Source: a virus
Taxonomy: Duplodnaviria; Caudoviricetes
Strand: one strand, 5' to 3'
Virus record (IMG/VR): IMGVR_UViG_3300045526_000085
Span: 1-40,032 of that record
DNA: 40,032 nucleotides
The notes beneath the pieces were generated by a model. The model ran no database searches. It had not been told where the DNA came from and was given only the letters and a program-made list of their open reading frames with translations. How positions within the stretch are numbered: the first letter of the stretch is position 1; each line of letters starts with the position of its first letter. Position numbers and translations under genes: made by a program. This document shows, piece by piece, positions 23,350 to 37,823 of this stretch.

Positions 23350-24681
23350 CTAATACACGCGGATTCCTGTGCCCTTGCCGGCATTCAGGTGGAGCGGGTT
23401 GAATTCGCTCATGATTAGATAGCCTAATCCGTCGCTCCAATGCTCGATGCCGCCGGTCTTGTCGATCACATAATCGTCGGCGCCTTGTTTATACGTGACA
23501 TTGCGCAGTGCCTTGATCGTGTTCTTGCAGCGCGGATGCACGAACAGGCGGATCTGGCCGTTGGCATTGCGGATCATGCAGTTGGTGGCATTGATCTTGT
23601 CCTTCACTGCCCACGGCGCTTTGGGGCTGACGCAACCGAAGCCGTACTGGCGGATGATCTCGTGATCAGTGCGGCCGGCGGATGACGTTTTTCTCGCCGA
23701 GCCTGTTGGATCAGGGAATGCGATCAACCTGCGATTCCTGAAGCGATCCTTGAGCATTGCGCACACTTCATCGGTGTTGGTCTGACGCACTGACACCTCA
23801 TCCCAGATGTGCAGCGTGTCGCCAACGCGGCTGCCGAGCACACCAGCCAGCACGCTTACGTTGAAGTCAGTGCCCCACAGGATCGGGCCGCCAGTGTCGG
23901 TGATGTCTTCGCTGATGTTGTCGTCGCCGAAGTCGGGATACACCCGGCCGGATAGCGTCTCAAAGCTGGCGAGGTATTCCTGGCGAAAGGTGCGCTCGTC
24001 AAGCGTTCGTTTAGCAGCTTCTACTTCATAGTCGGGAACATTCCCTCCCTCAATAGTGGTATAGCTAAATGTTGACCAGTCCTCTTGCTCTTTGGCTTGT
24101 TCCCACCAATCATAAAAATGGTTCAAGCCTGATGGTGTACTGATAAACCATGCCGGCCCACACTGATCTGAAAGCGCTGGACGCAATACCATTTCCCAAG
24201 CATCTTTTGGCACATAGGCAGCCTCGTCAAGCACGAGGGCGCTCAATGAAGCCCCCCGCAAAGAATCCGCGCGGTCCGCTCCTTTCAGCTGAATTCTGCT
24301 GCTATTTGTTAGCTCTACGGACAGCTCTGTCTCATTGGTTTTCAATATCAATTCCGGTGGAAGCATTGTTTTAAGTTGACGCCAAGCAATCTGTTTTGCG
24401 CTTACGTATGTCTGAGTCGAATACCAATTAAGGCTATTTGGTTTTTCTATTGCCCAACAAATGAGACGTGCAAGGCATAAATAAGTCTTGCCCATGCGAC
24501 GCCCAGCGCAGAGCATCTTGAATCGCTCTGGCGCATCCCACACAGTTCGCTGAGGAACAGTAAGAGACTCGTACAGCCGAGACACAAGCAGCTTGTATTG
24601 ATCGCTGTAATCAACTTGCATCTTGACAGGCGGTTCTAGCAAGCTGCCACCTGGGCAATGACTCAAGATTGAACCGCTCAT
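23350..24681 (-). CDS. terL: terminase large subunit
   Basis: Walker A AGRRMGKT, Walker B LVLDEAA, motif III ISTPSG.N, RNase H-like nuclease GTDFN...H.SDGLGY. Confidence 0.95.
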   Translation of the reverse strand: MSGSILSHCPGGSLLEPPVKMQVDYSDQYKLLVSRLYESLTVPQRTVWDAPERFKMLCAGRRMGKTYLCLARLICWAIEKPNSLNWYSTQTYVSAKQIAWRQLKTMLPPELILKTNETELSVELTNSSRIQLKGADRADSLRGASLSALVLDEAAYVPKDAWEMVLRPALSDQCGPAWFISTPSGLNHFYDWWEQAKEQEDWSTFSYTTIEGGNVPDYEVEAAKRTLDERTFRQEYLASFETLSGRVYPDFGDDNISEDITDTGGPILWGTDFNVSVLAGVLGSRVGDTLHIWDEVSVRQTNTDEVCAMLKDRFRNRRLIAFPDPTGSARKTSSAGRTDHEIIRQYGFGCVSPKAPWAVKDKINATNCMIRNANGQIRLFVHPRCKNTIKALRNVTYKQGADDYVIDKTGGIEHWSDGLGYLIMSEFNPLHLNAGKGTGIRVY

Positions 24682-26096
24682 GCTGCCATCTTGTATAAAG
24701 CCTTGCGTTGCGCTGGTGATGTTGTCAAGAATCGAACTGCAAACTCTTCGCGTCCGTACTCTTGCAGCAAAGAGTGGAATTCAACAGCTTTAGCAAATAG
24801 TTGCTCGCAGCTCATTCTACGCACCTCAGTATGCCCCTCCCATTTCGCTTGCGCCAAAGCGCTTGGGCATTCTGCCATGACCCGAGTCGCCTTTAATACG
24901 GCTTGCTCGATCAACCAAGAATCAATGCGAGTGAGAACAATGAAATCATAGACATCTCCATACTCGCCTCGGGATGCACGCTTGCGGATTCTAATATCCT
25001 CTGCGATCCCAGGCTTTGCGTAACCTTCAAATCGCTTTAAGGGAAAGACGTAGAAATAGGACTCGGCTTCTGGATTTCGGAAGGTGCCAGCTATCCAAGC
25101 TTGGAGACTATCGTATCCGCCTTGCCCGCATCCGCAAGTTTTCTGCAATCCGGATACGGCATCACGAAGTCTTACTTCGCATGTATTTCCGCAATCACAC
25201 TGGAACTCCCAAGTGTATGTGGTTTCACCGGAACGCTTGCCAATGCTTCGCAGTGCAACTAAGTTGCCGAATCGTTCGCCAGTCCTATCAGCGGCGCACG
25301 TGCTTTTGCTGCAGCCACAACTGGCGTTGGGATTTTGCTTGACGTTGCACGGAAGACGAGTGCATGTATTTCCGCAATCACATCGCCAAAGCCATCTGCC
25401 TTGCGAAGCGCACTTTGAATTATCAATTTGCTTGATGCCTATTAACTTGCCGAAACGCACGCCAGAATAATTATCCGACTTTGTGACAGACATTCGTTTC
25501 TTCGCGCATTGCGAACATCCCACGTCGCCATTGCGCTTAAGTCTCCATTTAATAGTCGCTCCAGCTGCTATTACCTCTCCGCCGCAATCGCACCTAAAGC
25601 GCCAATGCGCTTGCCCTCTATTGCCATTTGACTTGACAGCGCTATGGCTGTACTCAATGGCAGTCAAGCGACCAAACCTTTGGCCAGTTAAATCCTTGAG
25701 TTGCGTTTCCGTGATTCGATCTTTTCCGTAGCAGCCACAGCTAGATGTATTGCCAGAGGCAACGGAAGTGCATGTTGAATACGTGAGACGGCCGCAATCG
25801 CAAAGAAACTCCCACTCAAGAGAGGCGCCACGGCGGTTGCCGGTCCGTCGAACAGCAACAAGGCGGCCGAATCTTTGGCCGGTAATGTCTTTTGATCTGC
25901 GAATGGTAGCTTCTTCTTTAGCAAGGCATCCGCAGCTTTTTGAGCGACCGCAACGGACGAGGGATCCGTTGATTTGCTTTTGATTCCCGCAATCGCATTG
26001 CCACCACCACACGAGTTTGCCGTGGCGATCTTTGTGGGAAAATCGAAGCGCAACGAGACGGCCGAATCGCTGGCCGCTAAGGTCTAAACTGTGCAT
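24678..26096 (-). mobile_element. free-standing homing-endonuclease-like gene: five Zn-binding repeats plus a GIY-YIG/T5orf172-like C-terminal domain
   Basis: Five D..G.RFG.L....W...CDCG.....C..C repeats, then YFYV....YAKPGIA.D...R...IEQAVL...EGHTE; AT-richer than its flanks; inserted between terS and terL; start moved to ATG 26096. Confidence 0.7.
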
Positions 26097-26160
26097 GGTT
26101 CCAGGTAACAGCTGGGATCCGTGGGGCAGGGTGTTAGCGCACCGCTGCCCCTTCATCGTA
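26097..26160 (-). promoter_or_regulatory. promoter and structured leader of the endonuclease gene
   Basis: TACGAT -10 box right after the terS stop, then hairpin GGGGCAGCGGTG-CGCTAA-CACCCTGCCCC and a second stem CCAG-CTGTTAC-CTGG abutting the ATG. Confidence 0.55.
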
Positions 26161-26161
26161 G

Positions 26162-26488
26162 CTAGGAGCAAAGCTGCGCCAACTTCGCCGCAGTATTGAT
26201 CGCGCCCAGTGCGATGTGGTACTGGCCCGCCTGCCGTGCTTCCTGCTGTAGCGTCGCGCATTGCGACAGGAGATCAGCCACCATCTGCGGCCGTTCGATG
26301 TCCCAGTCAGCCTTGAGCTTCTCGCGGGCATGACGCAAGTAAAGGTCGCAGGCGTCATCCTTCACCCCCCAGTTCTCCCGGGCGTAGCGGATGCAATCCG
26401 ACCTGCGACCACCTGCGGCGATGATCCGCGCGAAGTGTTCGGCGCGTTCTAGGGTTTCTTGTTTTGGACCACGCGGCGCAGCCATCAA
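26162..26488 (-). CDS. putative terminase small subunit
   Basis: 108 aa with an N-terminal HTH-like segment and helical C-terminus; first gene upstream of the endonuclease/terL pair. Confidence 0.6.
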   Translation of the reverse strand: MMAAPRGPKQETLERAEHFARIIAAGGRRSDCIRYARENWGVKDDACDLYLRHAREKLKADWDIERPQMVADLLSQCATLQQEARQAGQYHIALGAINTAAKLAQLCS

Positions 26489-26511: not shown

Positions 26512-27549
26512 CTAACCCCTTATCTGCACAGGCATTACAAGGTAGATGTTAGCGGAATCGCCATCGGATAGCACGACCGGGGTGGTTGAGCTGTTGGCGC
26601 GGATGGTGATGGTGTCACTGTTGAAGCCTTTCACGCCGTCGATCAGGTAGTGCACATTACAGGCCAGATCAGGCAGCTTGCCGTCCAGTGCGATGGTTTC
26701 AGCGCCGCTGTTGGCCTCGGCTTCGGCGGTGAGTTTGCCGCCGCTGAGCTTCACGACGGAGTTGTGGCTGTCGGCGATCACGGCGATCCGCTCCAGTGCG
26801 CGGAGCAGCGCCACGCGGCTGCAGGTTGCCTCATGGCTGCTGGTGGCAGGCACCAAGGCTTGTACGTCTGGGTAGCGGCCATCGAGCACGCGGCTGGTGA
26901 TGGTGGTGGTGCCGGCGCTGAAGCTGACGTGATGGCCGTCGGTGGTGATGGTGCACGGTTCACGCAGCAGTGCCATCGTGCGGCCGGGTACGACGACATC
27001 CAGCTCCAGCTCGGCCGGCACGGTGCGCACGGCAAGGCGATGGCCGTCTGTGGCCTGCAGCGCCATCAAGCCACCCGTAGCGGCCACGTGGACGCCCGTG
27101 AGCAGCTGCTTCGCTGCGTCATGGCTCACAGCAGGCAACACGGCGCTCAGAGCGTCCTGTAGGGCCACAGGAGCGCCTGCAGCGGCATCCACGGCCGGAA
27201 GGGCGGGGAAGTCATCCGCAGCGGCCACAGAGAGGCTGTAGGAGCCACCAGCGGCGGTGAGCTGCAGGCGGTCGCCATCCAGTGCCAGTGATACGGCGTC
27301 AGACAATCGACCGGCGATCTCCGACAGCAGGCGATGCGGCACCACCACGGAGCCGGGTGTTTCCACTGCGGCGGTGATGGTGGTGGTGATACCGAGGTCC
27401 AGGTCGTAAGCGGTGACCGCCAGCTTGCCGTCGTCGGTGGCAGTGAGCAGTACACCGGCAAGGATCGGATGCGTCTTGCCGCTGGATACAGCACGCGCCA
27501 CGGTGCGGAGTGCGGCGTTGAGATCAGCTTGGGTTGCGAGCAGTTTCAT
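26512..27549 (-). CDS. dnaN: DNA polymerase III beta sliding clamp
   Basis: THPILAGVLL, AYDLDLGI, DDFPALP, LQATDGHRLAV, RVLDGRYPDVQALVP and C-terminal YLVMPVQIR; start moved to ATG 27549. Confidence 0.93.
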   Translation of the reverse strand: MKLLATQADLNAALRTVARAVSSGKTHPILAGVLLTATDDGKLAVTAYDLDLGITTTITAAVETPGSVVVPHRLLSEIAGRLSDAVSLALDGDRLQLTAAGGSYSLSVAAADDFPALPAVDAAAGAPVALQDALSAVLPAVSHDAAKQLLTGVHVAATGGLMALQATDGHRLAVRTVPAELELDVVVPGRTMALLREPCTITTDGHHVSFSAGTTTITSRVLDGRYPDVQALVPATSSHEATCSRVALLRALERIAVIADSHNSVVKLSGGKLTAEAEANSGAETIALDGKLPDLACNVHYLIDGVKGFNSDTITIRANSSTTPVVLSDGDSANIYLVMPVQIRG

Positions 27550-27790
27550 GAAGCTTGGAGATAACAAAAGCAACGAGGGATTCAACGTGATGCCGGCTGA
27601 GGTCGCCGCGCATGAAGGCAGCGGCATCGGCAACCAGCGAATGATACGCCACCGGGCTCAACCCTGCAACGGTCGGTAGCGCCAGTGCGCGATCGCGGAT
27701 CAACTGCGTGCGGGTGGTGCCAGCAGCGGCGGCTTCAGCGTTGAGCCTCTCCAGGTCGGATGGGTGGAGGCGGATCTTGATTTCTTGCAT
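27524..27790 (-). CDS. ribbon-helix-helix (CopG/Arc-like) protein
   Basis: MQEIKIRLHPSDLERLNAEAAAAGTTRTQLIRDRAL RHH pattern. Confidence 0.7.
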   Translation of the reverse strand: MQEIKIRLHPSDLERLNAEAAAAGTTRTQLIRDRALALPTVAGLSPVAYHSLVADAAAFMRGDLSRHHVESLVAFVISKLHETARNPS

Positions 27791-32169: not shown

Positions 32170-32442
32170 ATGAGAAGACTTACCCTCGCTGCCGCTGCGG
32201 CGGCACTGCTGCTACCGGCCGCTCATGCCGGTGCTGTTGACCCTGAGCTGTATGCGGCACGGTTCTGCCTGCTGCGGCTGCAAGGCACCAGCCTGCGTGA
32301 TTCCATTCGCCAGGCTGTTGAATACGCCTGGGATTCGGAGCTGCCATCACCGACTGCAGCCGTCACGCGCCACGGTGAAACCGTCCGCATTGATGGCGCT
32401 GCTGCGATGGATGCTGCCCGTAAGCGCTGCCCGGAGGTTTGA
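32170..32442 (+). CDS. small exported protein with signal peptide
   Basis: MRRLTLAAAAAALLLPAAHA-G, a classic Sec signal with an AHA cleavage site; two Cys in the mature part. Confidence 0.7.
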   Translation: MRRLTLAAAAAALLLPAAHAGAVDPELYAARFCLLRLQGTSLRDSIRQAVEYAWDSELPSPTAAVTRHGETVRIDGAAAMDAARKRCPEV

Positions 32443-32627
32443 TGGCTCCGGTGATATTCAAGATCACCTATCGCCGCCCGTGGGGCTTGTGCACAGTCCA
32501 TACCGCGCAGTTTCAATCTGAACCGGAGCTGCGCATTGGCTTTGCTAAGTCTTACCCAGGCTGCGAGTTGGTATTCGTTGAAGATGTGACATCTCGTTTT
32601 TTTCCGAATGACAAGAATCTACTCTGA
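32442..32627 (+). CDS. hypothetical protein
   Basis: TGATG coupling to the upstream gene; overlaps the IbrA-like start. Confidence 0.55.
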   Translation: MAPVIFKITYRRPWGLCTVHTAQFQSEPELRIGFAKSYPGCELVFVEDVTSRFFPNDKNLL

Positions 32628-33927
32628 TTCCAATGTTTACGAAGCATCCCTAAGTCGGCTTAATTTTATCTTTGCCAACTTCAAGCGTGTTTATGTGTCA
32701 TTTTCAGGCGGCAAAGATTCCGGTGTATTGCTAAATCTTGTTCTTGATTACATGCGAGAACATGGCATCACGCAAAAGATCGGCGTGCAGATCATGGACA
32801 ACGAAGCGAATTACACGCATAGCGAGGAGTTCATGCACCGCATTCTCCAAGCAAATCGCAATCTGCTTGACGTCTATTGGTGCTGCTTGCCAATTACGTT
32901 GCCATGCACCGTTAGCTCTTACGAGATTGACTGGCAGTGCTGGGGGGAAGCAGACCGCCACCGCTGGATTCGGCCAATGCCGCAGCAAGATTACATCGTC
33001 AACCTGCAAAACCATCCATTTGGTGAGCTGTTCATCGAAAACATGGACTACGCCACCTTTTGGGACATGTTTGCTGAATGGTATAGCCAAGGCGAGCCGT
33101 GCGCCAACTTGATTGGCATTCGCACAGTTGAATCGCTTAACCGCTTTCGCGCCATTGTCAACCAAGACAAGGAGACAATGGGCGGCATGATGTGGACAAA
33201 AAAGAATACCGATCACACTTACAACTGTTATCCCATTTACGACTGGCGCACCGAAGATATATGGACAGCAAACGCTAAGTTTGGCTGGGATTACAACAAG
33301 CTGTATGACATCTTTTATATGGCTGGTATTCCAATCAAAAAGATGCGCGTTGCCTCTCCATTTATGTCGGAGTCAAAATCAAGCTTGGCGATGTATCGGG
33401 TAATTGATCCACAGATCTGGGCGCGGCTCTGCGCAAGGGTAGGCGGCGCAAACTTTATGGCCACTTACGGCAAACAGCTTGACTACAAATCGTTTCGGCT
33501 GCCGCCTGGCCACACGTGGAAGTCATTTGTCAAATTCTTGCTTGCAACGCTACCAGATCAATCCAGCGCAAATTTTAAGCAGCGCTTCATTCAGTCCATC
33601 CGCTACTGGGGGCGAGTGGGGCGCGGATTGCCTGAGCACATTATCCAAGCGTTAAGCCGTATTGGCATTTGCTTTTACATCAATGGCACAACACGCCACG
33701 GCGGCAACAATCTCCGCCGTGTTGTAATCAAGGTTCCGCCTGATCACCTTGATGAATTGCCGTGCCATAACAGCATGGTGACATCTTGGAAGCGATTTGC
33801 TATCACGGTGCTCAAAAACGATCACACGTGCAAGTACCTTGGCCTCGCGCCAACGCAAGAGCAGCAACGTCGCCAGAAGTCCATTCAACGCAAATACAGC
33901 CAAGTTCTCAACCGTTCCTCAAAATGA
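32608..33927 (+). CDS. IbrA/YbdN-like PAPS-reductase-family (PP-loop) protein with DUF3440
   Basis: PP-loop VSFSGGKDSG, LIGIRTVESLNRFR, YPIYDWRTEDIW, YNKLYD..YMAG....MRVASPF, P.GHTWKSF..FLL.TLP and SWKRFAITVLKND. Confidence 0.9.
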   Translation: MTRIYSDSNVYEASLSRLNFIFANFKRVYVSFSGGKDSGVLLNLVLDYMREHGITQKIGVQIMDNEANYTHSEEFMHRILQANRNLLDVYWCCLPITLPCTVSSYEIDWQCWGEADRHRWIRPMPQQDYIVNLQNHPFGELFIENMDYATFWDMFAEWYSQGEPCANLIGIRTVESLNRFRAIVNQDKETMGGMMWTKKNTDHTYNCYPIYDWRTEDIWTANAKFGWDYNKLYDIFYMAGIPIKKMRVASPFMSESKSSLAMYRVIDPQIWARLCARVGGANFMATYGKQLDYKSFRLPPGHTWKSFVKFLLATLPDQSSANFKQRFIQSIRYWGRVGRGLPEHIIQALSRIGICFYINGTTRHGGNNLRRVVIKVPPDHLDELPCHNSMVTSWKRFAITVLKNDHTCKYLGLAPTQEQQRRQKSIQRKYSQVLNRSSK

Positions 33928-34865
33928 AAATCCTCAACGCCAACCAACTGCCAGCTGATCGCGTTGTTCAATGCCCAAAAGGTGGTTTTACTTCGCACCG
34001 GCTGCTCACGGAATCAGACGGCATGGGTTACAGCATGACCAAAACGGTTGTGCATCCCGGCAAGCCTCACCGCTGGCATTACCAGCACCACCTTGAAACG
34101 TGCTACTGCGTCAGCGGCAAAGGGCTGCTTATCAACGAAACAACTAAAGAGCTTCACGCGATAGCGCCAGACATTACATACGTGCTGGACAACCACGATC
34201 CGCACACCTTCGAGGCACTTGAAGAAACGGTGCTGATCTGCGTGTTTAATCCACCGCTGCTTGGCAATGAGCTGCACGATGAGAACGATTCATACCCTTG
34301 GCGATCCCCAGTTTACTCCGTTCGGAGTATTCCTATCGAGAAAGTTACCGCCAATGATTACAACCCCAACTCTGTGGCACCGCCTGAGATGGCGCTACTG
34401 GAAACATCAATTTGGGAAGACGGTTACACGCAGCCTGTCGTTGTCGTGCACGACACGGAACGCGACCTATATGTGGTCGTTGACGGTTTTCACCGTTATT
34501 TGACACTTAAAAACAGCCAGCGCATCCGCGAACGCGAAAACGGAAGATTGCCTGTCGTGGTTCTGCGCAAGGAGCTGCATGATCGCATGGCTTCAACCAT
34601 TCGCCACAACCGCGCCCGTGGTTCGCACAACATTGAACTGATGAGCGTGATCGTTGCAGAGCTAATCGAAATGGGCAAAGGTGATGCTTGGATTTGCAAG
34701 CACATCGGCATGAGCCCTGATGAGCTGCTGCGCTTGAAGCAAATCACCGGCCTTGCATCGTTGTTCCTTGGCAAGGACTTCAGCAAAGCGTGGGATGTTG
34801 AGCAAATTGATGCCGTCTCTAAAGATCTGAGCGATGAAGCTGAAGAGAGTCTGGCTGCCGATTAA
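33924..34865 (+). CDS. fusion: EctC (ectoine synthase)-like cupin plus IbrB/YbdM-like ParB/Srx domain
   Basis: Start ATG 33924 (ATGA overlap). N-terminal SHRLL..DGMGYS...HYQHHLETCYCVSGKG...YVLDNHDPH...CVFNPPL.G.E.HDE..SYP; C-terminal ANDYNPNSV...SI.EDGYTQPVV...VVDGFHR...STIRHNRARGSH. Confidence 0.88.
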   Translation: MKILNANQLPADRVVQCPKGGFTSHRLLTESDGMGYSMTKTVVHPGKPHRWHYQHHLETCYCVSGKGLLINETTKELHAIAPDITYVLDNHDPHTFEALEETVLICVFNPPLLGNELHDENDSYPWRSPVYSVRSIPIEKVTANDYNPNSVAPPEMALLETSIWEDGYTQPVVVVHDTERDLYVVVDGFHRYLTLKNSQRIRERENGRLPVVVLRKELHDRMASTIRHNRARGSHNIELMSVIVAELIEMGKGDAWICKHIGMSPDELLRLKQITGLASLFLGKDFSKAWDVEQIDAVSKDLSDEAEESLAAD

Positions 34866-35259
34866 TCAGTGGGAGGAGATCGGCGCGAACATGTGGGGTG
34901 AGGTCAAGGATCGTCGTCTCTACTTGCAACGCGCCGTGATCTTCACCGGCAATCATCGCCTATACGGGCGATACATGATGCGCGTGATTTACGAATGGCC
35001 AAACAGCTGCCTTAATGCTTTGACTGATTACAACTTGAACCGCAAAGCGTGGATTGGCCACGCTGCGTGCGCATTGGCTTTACGCTGCCCCGAGGACATC
35101 ACTCGACAGGCTTGGGGACTGCTATCAGATGAGCAAAGGATTCTGGCGAACCGCCAAGCGGATCGAGCCATTCAATCCTGGGAGATGCGCTATGGAGAGA
35201 GTCTCGGAATACGTCAAGACGTGGAAGCGCCGGTGCTATTCGGACGGAATACCGGATAA
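34834..35259 (+). CDS. Trp-rich hypothetical protein of the IbrAB-like module
   Basis: WEE...MW...WPNSCLNALT..NLNRKAWIGHAAC....PE.ITRQAW..L...Q...AN..AD..I..W; overlaps both neighbours. Confidence 0.7.
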   Translation: MKLKRVWLPINQWEEIGANMWGEVKDRRLYLQRAVIFTGNHRLYGRYMMRVIYEWPNSCLNALTDYNLNRKAWIGHAACALALRCPEDITRQAWGLLSDEQRILANRQADRAIQSWEMRYGESLGIRQDVEAPVLFGRNTG

Positions 35260-35461
35260 GGTGCCGAGCAAGGTTGCCGCATCTGGCCGGGCACCGTCTT
35301 GGCGTGCGGTAGCGATTGCACTTTTGCAAAACGATCTCAATTTGTACCAATTGGGGTTCTCAAAACCTGCATACGAAAAACAAATGCAAGCGATCAGACG
35401 TGCGCACATTGCCGTAAACGGTCAACTGCCTGATTACACGCAACTAGAACTAAAGCTATGA
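35192..35461 (+). CDS. stand-alone DUF3440 C-terminal-like protein (89 aa)
   Basis: YVKTWKRRCYSDGIPD...APSWRAVAIALLQND....LGFS parallels the IbrA-like C-terminus (SWKRFAITVLKND....LGLA); start ATG 35192; stop overlaps the helicase ATG. Confidence 0.7.
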   Translation: MERVSEYVKTWKRRCYSDGIPDKVPSKVAASGRAPSWRAVAIALLQNDLNLYQLGFSKPAYEKQMQAIRRAHIAVNGQLPDYTQLELKL

Positions 35462-36837
35462 CCATCCAACTCCGCCCCTACCAGCAACAGCTGGTCACCG
35501 AGATACGCGGGCAGTACCAACTGGGCAAGCGCAGTGTTCTTGCTGTGCTGCCTACCGGCGGCGGCAAGACGGTTATTTTCAGCCACATTGCCCAATCAGC
35601 TGCCAAGAAAGGCAACCGCGTGTGCATCTTGGTGCATCGCGCGGAACTGCTGGATCAAGCCAGCCGCAGCCTGCAGTGCATGGGCGTTCGGCATGGCCGC
35701 ATTGCCGCCGGCCGAAGCATGGACCTAAGCCATGCCGTGCAGGTTGCCAGTGTGCAGACACTGGCCCGCAGGCTGCACAAGTTGCCGCGTGATTTCTTCC
35801 AGCTGCTGGTGGTTGACGAATGCCACCACAGCAATGCGGGCACATGGGCCAGCGTGATCAGCCACTTCTCTGCCGCCAAGCTGCTGGGCGTTACTGCGAC
35901 TCCAATTCGCGGTGACGGCCGCGGCCTCGGCGAGTGGTATGAGGTGATGGTGCAGGGGCCAACTGCGAAATGGCTCACGGACAACGGCTACCTAGCGGCT
36001 GCCCGTGTGCTGGCACCACCCGGGTTTGATGCTGCCGGGCTGCGTAAGCGCATGGGCGACTTCGATGCCAAGCAAGCGGAGCAGCGGGTGACAACGATCA
36101 TGGGCGACTGCTGCAGCCACTACCGCAAACACCTGAGCGGCCGGACGGCGATTGCGTTCTGCTGCTCAGTGGCTCATGCCGAAGCGGTGGCGGGGCTGTT
36201 CATCAGCCAAGGCATCGCTGCAGCCAGCATTGACGGCAGCATGACCGGCGAACAACGGCGCGATCTGCTGCAAGCGCTGGAAACCGGCCGGTTGAAGGTG
36301 CTCACCAGCTGCGCATTGATCGGTGAAGGCGTGGACGTGCCAAGCGTCGGCGGCTGCATCCTGCTGCGGCCAACGCAGAGCGTCAGCCTGCACCTGCAGA
36401 TGATCGGCCGGTGCCTGCGGCCAGCACCGGGCAAGCCTGCTGCGGTGGTGCTCGATCACGTCGGCAATACACTCCGCCTTGGCCACCACCTAGAGGAGCG
36501 TGAGTGGAGCTTGGATGGCATCAAGAAACGCGACCGCGAGGCAGCACCCAGCGTGAAGGTATGCCCCAAGTGCTTCGCTACCACCATGAGCACCGCGCAG
36601 ATTTGCCGCGAATGCGGGCATGTGTTTGCACCGCAGGAGGCGCGTGAGCTGAAGGTGGTTGATGGTGAGCTGGTGGAGTTGCAGCGCCGCGAGCAACGCC
36701 GCGAGCAAGGCAGCGCGCAGAGCCTCCAGGATCTGATCGCCCTCGGCCACCAACGCGGCTACAAAAACCCCACCGCATGGGCGAAGCATGTCTATGCAGC
36801 ACGTCAACACAAACAACAACGGAGTCAGGTTGGATGA
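35458..36837 (+). CDS. SF2 DExH helicase (RadD/YejH-like) with C-terminal Zn ribbon
   Basis: Q motif LRPYQ, Walker A LPTGGGKT, VDECHH, TATP, EGVDVP, QMIGRCLR and CPKC..CRECG. Confidence 0.93.
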   Translation: MTIQLRPYQQQLVTEIRGQYQLGKRSVLAVLPTGGGKTVIFSHIAQSAAKKGNRVCILVHRAELLDQASRSLQCMGVRHGRIAAGRSMDLSHAVQVASVQTLARRLHKLPRDFFQLLVVDECHHSNAGTWASVISHFSAAKLLGVTATPIRGDGRGLGEWYEVMVQGPTAKWLTDNGYLAAARVLAPPGFDAAGLRKRMGDFDAKQAEQRVTTIMGDCCSHYRKHLSGRTAIAFCCSVAHAEAVAGLFISQGIAAASIDGSMTGEQRRDLLQALETGRLKVLTSCALIGEGVDVPSVGGCILLRPTQSVSLHLQMIGRCLRPAPGKPAAVVLDHVGNTLRLGHHLEEREWSLDGIKKRDREAAPSVKVCPKCFATTMSTAQICRECGHVFAPQEARELKVVDGELVELQRREQRREQGSAQSLQDLIALGHQRGYKNPTAWAKHVYAARQHKQQRSQVG

Positions 36838-37823
36838 GCAAGTTCTGCATTCAGCTCAACGACATCTCACTGCCGGATGCCATTGCAGCAGTGGTTGAGG
36901 CTTGGTATGAAGCGCAGGTGCAAGGTGAAATGCAATCAAAGGCGTATTACTCTGTAAAAGACTTGCAATCACTGCTAAACAAAAGCAGAGCTTCTGTTTA
37001 CAGACACATAAACACAACAAAGGGCGTCGCAAATCCTCCATTCGATCCGCAAAAGCTAAATCATGAATCCAGGGAAGACATCACGGATCCAATGCTGTTT
37101 ACCTTGGCAGAAGTGGACAGATGGCGACAGCAAAGGTTGATTCCAATCGAACAGCCAGTAACGCGCCGCCCAATTTCAATTCTTGAACAATCTAAGCCGG
37201 ATCCACTCAAGGAATGGGATTCGCCATCAGATGAAGCCATTCCCGTTATTGATTACATGACTACAACGATTGCAAATCTTACAAAAGCTGGCAAGTTAAA
37301 ACCCGGCGACAAAATGCCAAGCATCAGAGATCTTGCCGACAAAATCGGCTGTCATCGGAATACCTGCCTAAAAGCATATAAGGCACTAGAGGAGTCTCAG
37401 GTTCTCGTCGCTAAACCCGGTTCCGGCTATTATTTAGCAAATCAAGCCGATTCTTTTGGCGACAAAGAGCACGAGGATCACGAGCAATCAACGGAGGCAC
37501 TAGATTTAATTATTGCAAACTTGAATCAGTCACCAAAAATCAAAGGGACGCGCCTTGCCATTGAAAGACGTGGCAAGAAGCTAGCCATCAGAGGGAAGTT
37601 ACCGCTTAAATCAAATCCAGATAGCCATGCGTATCAGCGAATCAGCCTTGGAATTTCAGCCGATCAACAGAATGCTAGAATCGCTGAAATTGTTCTACTG
37701 CTAGTGAGTGACCAATTGAACCGCGACGATTTCAACTGGGACAGGTGGACCGACGATCGGTACATCAAAAAGATCGTTTCTAACGCAAAGCTTATTCTTA
37801 ATCCTTTGCCAGCAGTCGCTTAA
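36834..37823 (+). CDS. chimeric DNA-binding protein: HTH + GntR wHTH + integrase N-terminal-like domain
   Basis: LNKSRASVYRH..NPPFDPQKLN; LKPGDKMPSIRDLADKIGCHRNTCLKAYKALE....V.KPGSGYY; IERRGKKLAIRGKLP...YQRISLGISA...FNWDRW. AT-richer than its flanks; start ATG 36834. Confidence 0.75.
   Translation: MSKFCIQLNDISLPDAIAAVVEAWYEAQVQGEMQSKAYYSVKDLQSLLNKSRASVYRHINTTKGVANPPFDPQKLNHESREDITDPMLFTLAEVDRWRQQRLIPIEQPVTRRPISILEQSKPDPLKEWDSPSDEAIPVIDYMTTTIANLTKAGKLKPGDKMPSIRDLADKIGCHRNTCLKAYKALEESQVLVAKPGSGYYLANQADSFGDKEHEDHEQSTEALDLIIANLNQSPKIKGTRLAIERRGKKLAIRGKLPLKSNPDSHAYQRISLGISADQQNARIAEIVLLLVSDQLNRDDFNWDRWTDDRYIKKIVSNAKLILNPLPAVA

Follow-up and report, generated by a model that had tools for sequence, protein, structure and literature searches.

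Pairs of IbrA and IbrB (YbdN/YbdM-like) proteins are common in phages, prophages and bacterial chromosomes and, to our knowledge, have gone without a biochemical function for two decades. Here we analyse a cassette built around such a pair in a Caudoviricetes virus, the IMG/VR record IMGVR_UViG_3300045526_000085, of which positions 1 to 40,032 were taken as one stretch of 40,032 bases (the window); the record is estimated to be 93% complete. Four open reading frames (ORFs) lie on the + strand directly upstream of a helicase gene: IbrA (g1, 32608..33927), a fusion of an EctC-type cupin with IbrB (EctC::IbrB, g2, 33924..34865), g3 (34834..35259) and g4 (35129..35461). They overlap by 4 nucleotides (nt; g1/g2), 32 nt (g2/g3) and 131 nt (g3/g4), and g4 overlaps the helicase gene by 4 nt. 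The GC content of the cassette is 50.8%, against 58.8% in the structural region (3617-24681). The original prediction, made by a model from the sequence alone, had put forward these four overlapping, comparatively AT-rich genes as a candidate system for the modification of DNA or nucleotides; the genes, their base composition and all motifs cited were found, and the domain assignments agreed with Pfam, NCBIfam and PHROGs profiles. Its gene set was amended in two respects, the start of g4 being moved to the ATG at 35129 and a fifth, small ORF being added. The Pfam scan took in 26 window proteins and the PADLOC scan seven.

The cassette is a recurrent unit. A survey of the fusion and of the four-gene order, which the original prediction had suggested, covered 80 cassette loci; three were lost to contig ends, and the order IbrA, EctC::IbrB, g3, g4 is kept in all 77 complete viral loci that were long enough. 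The fusion matches 257 viral stretches, both domains are carried by all of the 120 best among 8000 scored homologues, and contigs of two other sequencing runs span the EctC-IbrB junction without a gap; this recurrence and these contigs rule out an assembly artefact. Median ratios of nonsynonymous to synonymous substitution rates (dN/dS) against the window are 0.03 for IbrA, 0.07 for the cupin, 0.02 for IbrB and 0.06 for g3 (16-58 loci, g4 excluded), values that are rough because dS is near saturation. By these measures the four are confirmed as real genes, those other than g4 being under purifying selection. Among 50,697 phage records, the whole fusion query is matched in four, those of Mycobacterium phages Gaia (two records) and Nebkiss and of Pseudoalteromonas phage XCL1123. 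They carry the same cassette in the same order (gp103-107 in Gaia and Nebkiss); in Gaia a GIY-YIG-annotated gene is inserted and in XCL1123 the cupin and IbrB are split. Gaia gp104, 67% identical to g2, is named 'ectoine synthase/ParB multidomain protein' in GenBank, so the fusion, of which the original prediction knew no description, is already described at annotation level. The literature searched held no functional study of the Gaia, Nebkiss or XCL1123 cassettes and no paper on an EctC-IbrB fusion or on IbrAB chemistry. A bacterial genome scan with two patterns gave one cassette-type match in 37, on a 4.4 kb contig, which is suggestive of rarity in bacterial genomes. GIY-YIG-like genes were also seen at the IbrAB loci L077 and L252.

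Residues 1-126 of the 313-amino-acid (aa) g2 protein (33924..34301, +) form an EctC-type cupin, much as predicted for the first ~125 residues. PF06339 matches residues 11-126 (E = 1.2e-36, 126 bits), the NCBIfam ectoine synthase model NF009806 scores 133.7 bits against a cut-off of 128, and the structures 5bxx and 5ono are matched at E values of 1e-23 to 1e-25. Residue roles, including those in metal binding and ring closure, follow the description of P. lautus EctC (PMC6344544). E58, Y86 and H94, which correspond to the EctC iron ligands Glu57, Tyr84 and His92, are present in 187/187 aligned rows, so that the metal ligands are indeed retained; Ser23, Arg25, Thr40, Tyr52, Cys104 and Phe106 are, like the ligands, retained in 186-187 of the 187 rows, and the C-terminal lid is preserved. 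Trp21, by contrast, has been replaced. This residue, whose mutation to Ala leaves 9.7% activity, is a conserved feature of EctCs, 437 from clusters and 145 orphans (PMC6344544); its position holds Phe in 86 of 95 cassette rows, the remaining nine having Phe or Tyr at a shifted place, and bacterial relatives have Trp at position 21 or at the shifted place in 36 of 38 rows, as read from printed rows. Because the Trp21 piston is lost, the substrate is probably a compound other than N-gamma-acetyl-diaminobutyrate. The carboxylate-contact position Asn38 is Thr in 186/187 rows, a weak criterion, as 5bxx has His there and orphan EctCs often have Thr. A phage-specific Asn38-to-Thr exchange was rejected on finding Thr in 25 of 37 bacterial relatives, a biased sample picked from 185,579 genomes by patterns of the phage alignment.

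In a short alignment the cassette cupins occupy one side of a branch with 100/99 support, opposite 37 bacterial rows. The absence of ectA and ectB noted earlier extends to the 93%-complete record, in which neither an ectB-type aminotransferase (PF00202) nor a GNAT (PF00583) was matched, and every cassette-type cupin seen accompanies IbrA, IbrB and g3. Several bacterial EctC-like relatives adjoin genes for non-ribosomal peptide synthetases or polyketide synthases (NRPS/PKS), acyl-CoA dehydrogenases or radical S-adenosylmethionine enzymes, those with Thr38 often having NRPS/PKS-type neighbours, and by analogy with these neighbourhoods the cassette-type cupin is plausibly a tailoring enzyme, not an osmolyte maker. 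In a scan that took in some of the loci, orphan EctC-type cupins stand by hybrid NRPS/PKS genes or cluster with Trp-pathway paralogues and an acyl-CoA dehydrogenase, in rhizobia (L093, L095, L098, L100) and actinomycetes (L099, L104-L107, L115, L119-L121); going by these gene clusters, such orphans are likely natural-product tailoring enzymes.

The remainder of g2 (34302..34865, +) is an IbrB of type B1, a ParB/Srx nucleotide-binding domain followed by a helical, helix-turn-helix (HTH)-like part. The predicted ParB/Srx assignment is borne out by phrog_2159 (3e-78) and ParB_N (4e-5), with further matches to the phage ParB-methyltransferase family phrog_498 (1e-9), to Noc (3e-6) and ParB (3e-5) and, weakly, to SbnI and SerK (0.03). 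The sequence DGFHR, which holds the GxxR phosphate motif as defined in 10.1101/2025.10.10.680097, is invariant in the fusion alignment; the nucleotide preference of ParB-type domains cannot be read from sequence, according to the same source. No ParA, the adjoining partner expected of a ParABS system, was present among the 26 window proteins scanned.

IbrA (439 aa, type A1) combines a PP-loop adenylyltransferase-like domain with DUF3440 (PF01507, 2.6e-9; DUF3440/PF11922, 1.7e-53; phrog_2302, 6e-112) and has the PP-loop motif SFSGGKDS. Its AlphaFold2 (AF2) model has a predicted local distance difference test score (pLDDT) of 64.7. The model's nearest folds are FAD synthase (Z 13.6, root-mean-square deviation 3.7, 169 aligned residues), CysD (Z 13.0), APS reductase (Z 12.0) and TilS (Z 11.1), and the PP-loop protein Cap9 (9nto) follows at Z 6.9; as modelled, IbrA is a PP-loop adenylyltransferase fold. 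A sequence search of the PDB gave nothing below an E value of 0.28. A link to phosphorothioation through a DndC/SspD-like PP-loop enzyme is not supported: the DndC model TIGR03183 scores 19.8 bits against a cut-off of 290.4, and the PADLOC DndC match is weak (1e-6 over 96 residues). CysH reductases of PAPS or APS have a C-terminal catalytic Cys motif. No CysH model was among the NCBIfam matches, and the C-terminus of IbrA is DUF3440. As for the Fe-S cluster cysteines of Dnd/Ssp phosphorothioation, EctC-linked IbrA proteins share six conserved cysteines (C92, C93, C100, C111, C275, C408), three of them at or close to places where the model has low confidence, and a CC..PC motif is typical of their clade. 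In a tree of 94 thinned rows, from which a motif filter had removed several g3-g4-A1 loci and in which one A2-labelled row (L218) fell among A1, the cupin-bearing IbrA proteins form one clade with support 1.0 in which 27/28 members have the cupin; split forms branch first. In the clade's sole cupin-free member (L284:3730-4476, a single case) the position of the cupin, between IbrA and IbrB, is taken by a peroxiredoxin gene. Sulfiredoxin, itself a ParB/Srx protein, acts on peroxiredoxins.

The third gene, g3, encodes a protein of 141 aa with seven Trp residues that matches no family in Pfam, NCBIfam, PHROGs or PADLOC and has 746 cluster representatives. The AF2 model (pLDDT 93.7) is all-helical. 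Foldseek gave no PDB match, the best Z among 48,161 chains was 4.2, the ESM Atlas held no usable match, and the sole match in BFVD was a 63%-identical homologue; the modelled g3 is thus without a fold match, an absence that does not prove a new fold. A search seeded with g3 returned 368 stretches, of which the 80 most like a cupin-free g3 were analysed. IbrA adjoins g3 in 80/80 of these loci, and g3 is, by this co-occurrence, a general third component of IbrAB modules; its standing as an IbrAB subunit is supported by three loci in which a second type of IbrB, IbrB2, is fused to g3 (L274, 4242-5414 region; L275; L280). Two types of IbrA occur, A1 (that of the window) and A2: 45 loci have A2 only, seven A2 and A1, 15 A1 and g4 without cupin, ten A1, g4 and cupin, and three A1 only. 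By this tally, g3 goes with A2 or with its remnant g4, and the cupin only with A1 plus g4 (0/52 loci with A2). Because modules of IbrA, IbrB, g3 and g4 that have no cupin are common (15/80 loci, against ten with it), the cupin is, as far as gene content tells, an optional add-on outside the core of the system. The same 15 A1+B1+g3+g4 loci led us to reject the notion that EctC is required as a replacement for the lost catalytic domain of a second IbrA. They also displace the cupin from the centre of the original scheme, in which it cyclised or supplied an attached group; an action on such a group is kept below for an accessory enzyme.

Beyond the window's type, 80 Streptococcus-type IbrB loci had the cupin in none and g3 in five. 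GNAT genes lie inside (five) or just after (one) the module in 6 of 56 inspected A2-type modules, at the IbrB2-g3-IbrA2 loci L235:6612-7004, L242:6551-6913, L254:5386-5775, L277:6570-6998, L282:5237-5620 and L283:1198-1587, and are candidate alternative tailoring enzymes. Most genes next to the modules belong to replication, recombination or nucleotide functions, with dUTPase and ThyX beside some modules. Tandem modules that combine g3 with both IbrA types and with IbrB of one or two types (L181, L187-L189, L201, L215-L218), are possibly the ancestral full form. PD-(D/E)xK nuclease-like genes were seen inside the modules of L222, L230 and L231 and adjoining those of L242, L263, L270, L277 and L278.

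The last gene, g4, starts inside g3 at 35129, the start codon being ATG in 66 of 67 distinct loci and GTG in the other; as a control, the same codon class elsewhere in g3 ends in T in 417/1124 cases. The 110-aa product is 37% identical over 70 aa to the C-terminus of A2 (E = 3e-14), with a weak match to phrog_15645, and is by this likeness a C-terminal remnant, a DUF3440 piece, of a second IbrA of type A2. It ends in QLELKL, and its relatives in QLELPL, QLELF, QLSLL, QMEMF or QIDLF. The hexameric form of the clamp-binding motif is that of DinB/Hda. A consensus QL[SD]LF is given for clamp binding in PMC12867686. With one fixed pattern, a clamp-type C-terminus was found in 50 of 61 distinct g4 ends, compared with 15/560 for neighbouring control proteins and 0-2 for each of the other cassette protein classes. 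The pattern appears at the end of g3 in 17/39 A2 modules that have no g4, and in 3/68 where g4 exists. This movement of the motif between subunits suggests selection for one tethered complex, clamp binding itself being predicted. In locus L077 (4074-5336), g4 is fused to a clamp-like or unassigned extension of 330 aa, followed by a weak family-B polymerase match.

The cassette occupies an exchangeable slot (32447..35457, no strand) upstream of the helicase gene. A scan seeded with the window's helicase, and thus with a biased comparison set, gave 71 loci; 58 extend at least 3.2 kb upstream, and 56 of these 58 are without the cassette, as such a seed favours. The window's four nearest relatives, whose helicases are 95-97% identical, have an SNF2-like helicase and an N6/N4 DNA methyltransferase (PF01555) between the same flanks. 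The junctions, shared with loci L287, L289 and L290, are sharp: identity breaks off at 32446 and returns at the helicase start. The replacement recurs in a contig of run X6, where 3155 other letters stand between 32446 and 35467. The methyltransferase fills the slot in 8/10 loci whose helicase is at least 85% identical and, across 61 loci that extend 2.5 kb or more upstream, in 17, against two with the cassette and 42 with something else (L354-L357, with 24% helicase identity, were left out). The small ORF of 61 aa, which has no family (32442..32627, +), makes up the left end of the swapped segment, inside the exact junctions. It has a homologue directly upstream of IbrA in 26/66 of the closest cassette loci and weak matches in one more; among helicase-seeded loci it is present only in the two with the cassette. 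Among entire records 20 kb or longer, PF01555 methyltransferases occur in 0/24 with the cassette and 10/26 others; with one other-IbrB record moved to the IbrAB-bearing side the counts are 0/25 and 10/25 (p = 0.0006), and among records at least 90% complete 0/13 and 4/10 (p = 0.024), p values that overstate the case, since related genomes compete for one slot. On these comparisons the IbrAB module is accessory and exchangeable. Two relatives, L316 and L335, have a ParB-like/DUF5131 gene pair in this slot, possibly another DNA-acting module.

Because the cassette sits where the closest relatives carry a DNA methyltransferase, it is likely to mark newly copied phage DNA, not to make ectoine. We put at about one in two the probability that it is a replication-coupled, clamp-tethered DNA-modifying module that counters restriction, with the cupin as a tailoring enzyme; the features observed are its gene content and conservation, the exact methyltransferase swap, the clamp-type motif and the intact catalytic motifs. 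Through the QLELKL tail of g4 the complex would attach to the beta clamp, whether host or phage-encoded, behind the fork. IbrB would bind nucleotide and DNA and load or activate IbrA, comparable to the ParB-like protein that activates a phage DNA-modifying enzyme, a T-dioxygenase (PMC13229309). In the weakest steps of the scheme, IbrA would use ATP to adenylate a DNA oxygen, either of the phosphate, given the likeness to FAD synthase and CysD, or of a base carbonyl, as TilS does, and replace the adenylated oxygen by an amine-bearing group; on this group, or on a precursor of it, the iron cupin would then cyclodehydrate an amide with an adjacent amine, and sister modules would acylate the amine-bearing group with a GNAT instead, a fold with precedent in a phage DNA modifier (PMC13219725). 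The modification would protect newly replicated phage DNA against host restriction. In this form the DNA-modification proposal of the original prediction has gained positional support from the methyltransferase swap and support from the clamp-type motif; the cupin has become peripheral. More tentatively, and with doubt prevailing, IbrA, IbrB, g3 and g4 could be an unrecognised and very widespread class of clamp-tethered DNA hypermodification with ATP-dependent amine installation, a plug-in GNAT or ectoine-like, cyclic-amidine-forming cupin, a novel mark, and in g3 a new all-helical fold.

Several observations weigh against a DNA-modifying role. The slot also accepts RecD-like helicases, HNH nucleases and unassigned genes and may be a general hot spot, and the exclusion of N6/N4 methyltransferases may be mere competition for one slot among related genomes; C5 methyltransferases (PF00145) show no difference (2/24 versus 4/26), and the swapped-in module includes a helicase besides the methyltransferase. 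Avoidance of 4-mer palindromes in the flanks is equal (0.875 versus 0.878). The motif is missing from g4 in 11/61 cases, Gaia included, the literature searched reports no modified nucleoside from an IbrAB phage, and the deep, lidded pocket of EctC is better suited to a small molecule than to a group bound to DNA. Docking on the clamp is just as compatible with activation of transcription, as with MuC of phage Mu, which requires its clamp motifs for late transcription (PMC12867686), and the sole function attached to IbrAB is the annotation 'co-activator of prophage gene expression'. A difference in avoidance of 6-mer palindromes (0.73 versus 0.67, p = 0.026, one of two tests, on 19 versus 35 related loci) was set aside as evidence.

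Clamp docking and the co-activator annotation lead to a different reading, in which a complex on the clamp would activate or anti-silence late or replication-linked genes, perhaps via protein adenylation, with the cupin as sensor or tailor. The ParB domain of IbrB with its HTH-like part would suit such a regulator, and PP-loop Cap9, to which the IbrA model bears some likeness, modifies a protein. Yet the cassette is dispensable, as near-identical phages do without it, which would be unexpected of an essential late activator; it is exchanged for a methyltransferase, and a regulator has no obvious need for GNAT or cupin add-ons; we consider this reading unlikely. Slightly less probable still is a small-molecule or nucleotide-pool pathway, in which IbrA would adenylate a free substrate, IbrB would serve as kinase or NTPase and the cupin would cyclise the product into an anti-defence signal, a modified dNTP or a metabolite. 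The enzymes with the folds nearest to IbrA act on flavin mononucleotide and sulfate, the weak likeness of IbrB is to the kinases SbnI and SerK, EctC works on amino-acid derivatives in free form and, in a side reaction, cyclises glutamine (PMC6344544), and dUTPase and ThyX lie beside some modules; soluble enzymes, however, need no conserved clamp motif that moves between subunits, and the near clade is without co-travelling DNA polymerase or pathway genes.

Transfer of sulfur to DNA, by phosphorothioation or otherwise, with IbrA as a DndC/SspD-like enzyme, would make use of the six conserved cysteines and the CC..PC motif and agrees with the weak PADLOC match. It is improbable given the DndC score far below cut-off, the absence of any Dnd or Ssp partner among the seven PADLOC-scanned proteins and of DndA/D/E and SspB/C among the 26 scanned with Pfam, and a cupin of the amidine-forming kind that it leaves without a role. 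Least probable is an auxiliary metabolic gene whose cupin makes an osmoprotectant for the host, the interpretation given to viral ectoine synthases in virome papers (PMC12647753, PMC13079714) and one that the NCBIfam score above cut-off would allow. Against it stand the lack of ectA/ectB-type genes in the record, the Phe or Tyr in place of Trp21, the separate 100/99 branch, the constant company of IbrA, IbrB and g3 where cassette-type cupins were seen, and the freshwater origin of the best-matching run; ectoine production is unlikely.

By its protein families the cassette is an IbrA/IbrB module, with a PP-loop PAPS-reductase-like domain plus DUF3440 next to a ParB/Srx IbrB (phrog_2159), and falls outside the ectoine, Dnd, CysH and ParABS systems in the strict sense. 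The IbrA/IbrB pairs of E. coli and phages (PHROGs 2302 and 2159; Streptococcus phage CHPC1230) have the same two proteins side by side with the same motifs; the window adds the EctC-type cupin, g3 and g4, and its IbrA falls in a clade of its own. With EctC (PF06339; 5ONM-5ONO, 5BXX) and the orphan cupins, the cassette cupin has in common the conserved residues and lid described above, but it differs in Trp21 and Asn38, in its separate branch, in the lack of ectAB and in being fused or coupled to IbrB. ParB-dependent T-dioxygenases (PMC13229309) and ParB-methyltransferase fusions likewise join a phage ParB-like protein to a predicted DNA-acting enzyme, whereas here, in contrast to the T-dioxygenase systems, the partner is a PP-loop enzyme, not a 2-oxoglutarate- and iron-dependent dioxygenase, and there are extra subunits. 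Dnd/Ssp operons (DndC and DndB) also combine a PP-loop ATP pyrophosphatase with a ParB-family protein (PMC10853773), and the cupin and clamp motif are foreign to Dnd. Phage Mu offers two precedents that have no homology to the cassette, MuC, a clamp-dependent late activator with Q-x-x-L-F-type motifs (PMC12867686), and Mom, which modifies DNA after replication by means of a GNAT fold (PMC13219725).

The methyltransferase exchange, g3 as a general component, g4 as an apparent A2 remnant, the clamp-type motif and the optional, clade-bound nature of EctC are new here, as read from genome comparison. With the methyltransferase swap, the motif and carrier phages in culture on harmless hosts (M. smegmatis for Gaia, Pseudoalteromonas marina for XCL1123), the question is open to direct test; if true, the favoured reading would mean phage DNA modification and counter-restriction of a new class. 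Viral 'ectoine synthase' or 'PAPS reductase' genes counted as auxiliary genes for osmoprotection or sulfur metabolism may belong to this cassette (cf. PMC12647753, PMC13079714).

The rest of the window encodes tail, head, terminase, clamp, primase and helicase proteins (Pfam, PHROGs). The major capsid protein is 76% identical to that of Synechococcus phage S-H1 and 74% to that of cyanophage KBS-S-2A, and from this likeness the host is probably a picocyanobacterium. The runs that hold the whole window are freshwater metagenomes, and no RNA run was among those listed as holding window sequence. The SF2 helicase that flanks the slot (35458..36837, +) matches PF04851, PF00271 and phrog_16. A DNA polymerase III beta clamp (26512..27633, -; TIGR00663, 217 bits, cut-off 137.65) lies outside the cassette and is a possible docking partner; it is common among relatives, including those without the cassette. 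A specific tie between the cassette and a phage-encoded clamp was rejected, a clamp being present in 20/80 cassette loci and in 16 cassette-free loci among 67 helicase-seeded ones. This clamp occurs in a 40 kb cyanophage-like genome, yet no DNA polymerase was among the window proteins scanned. Directly upstream of the terminase, a 527-aa protein (24678-26261, -) has five repeats matching an HNH-endonuclease-associated PHROG. Downstream of the helicase, an AT-rich gene (36777-37823, +; 48% GC bin) with MerR-like and GntR-type HTH domains is possibly a second insertion.

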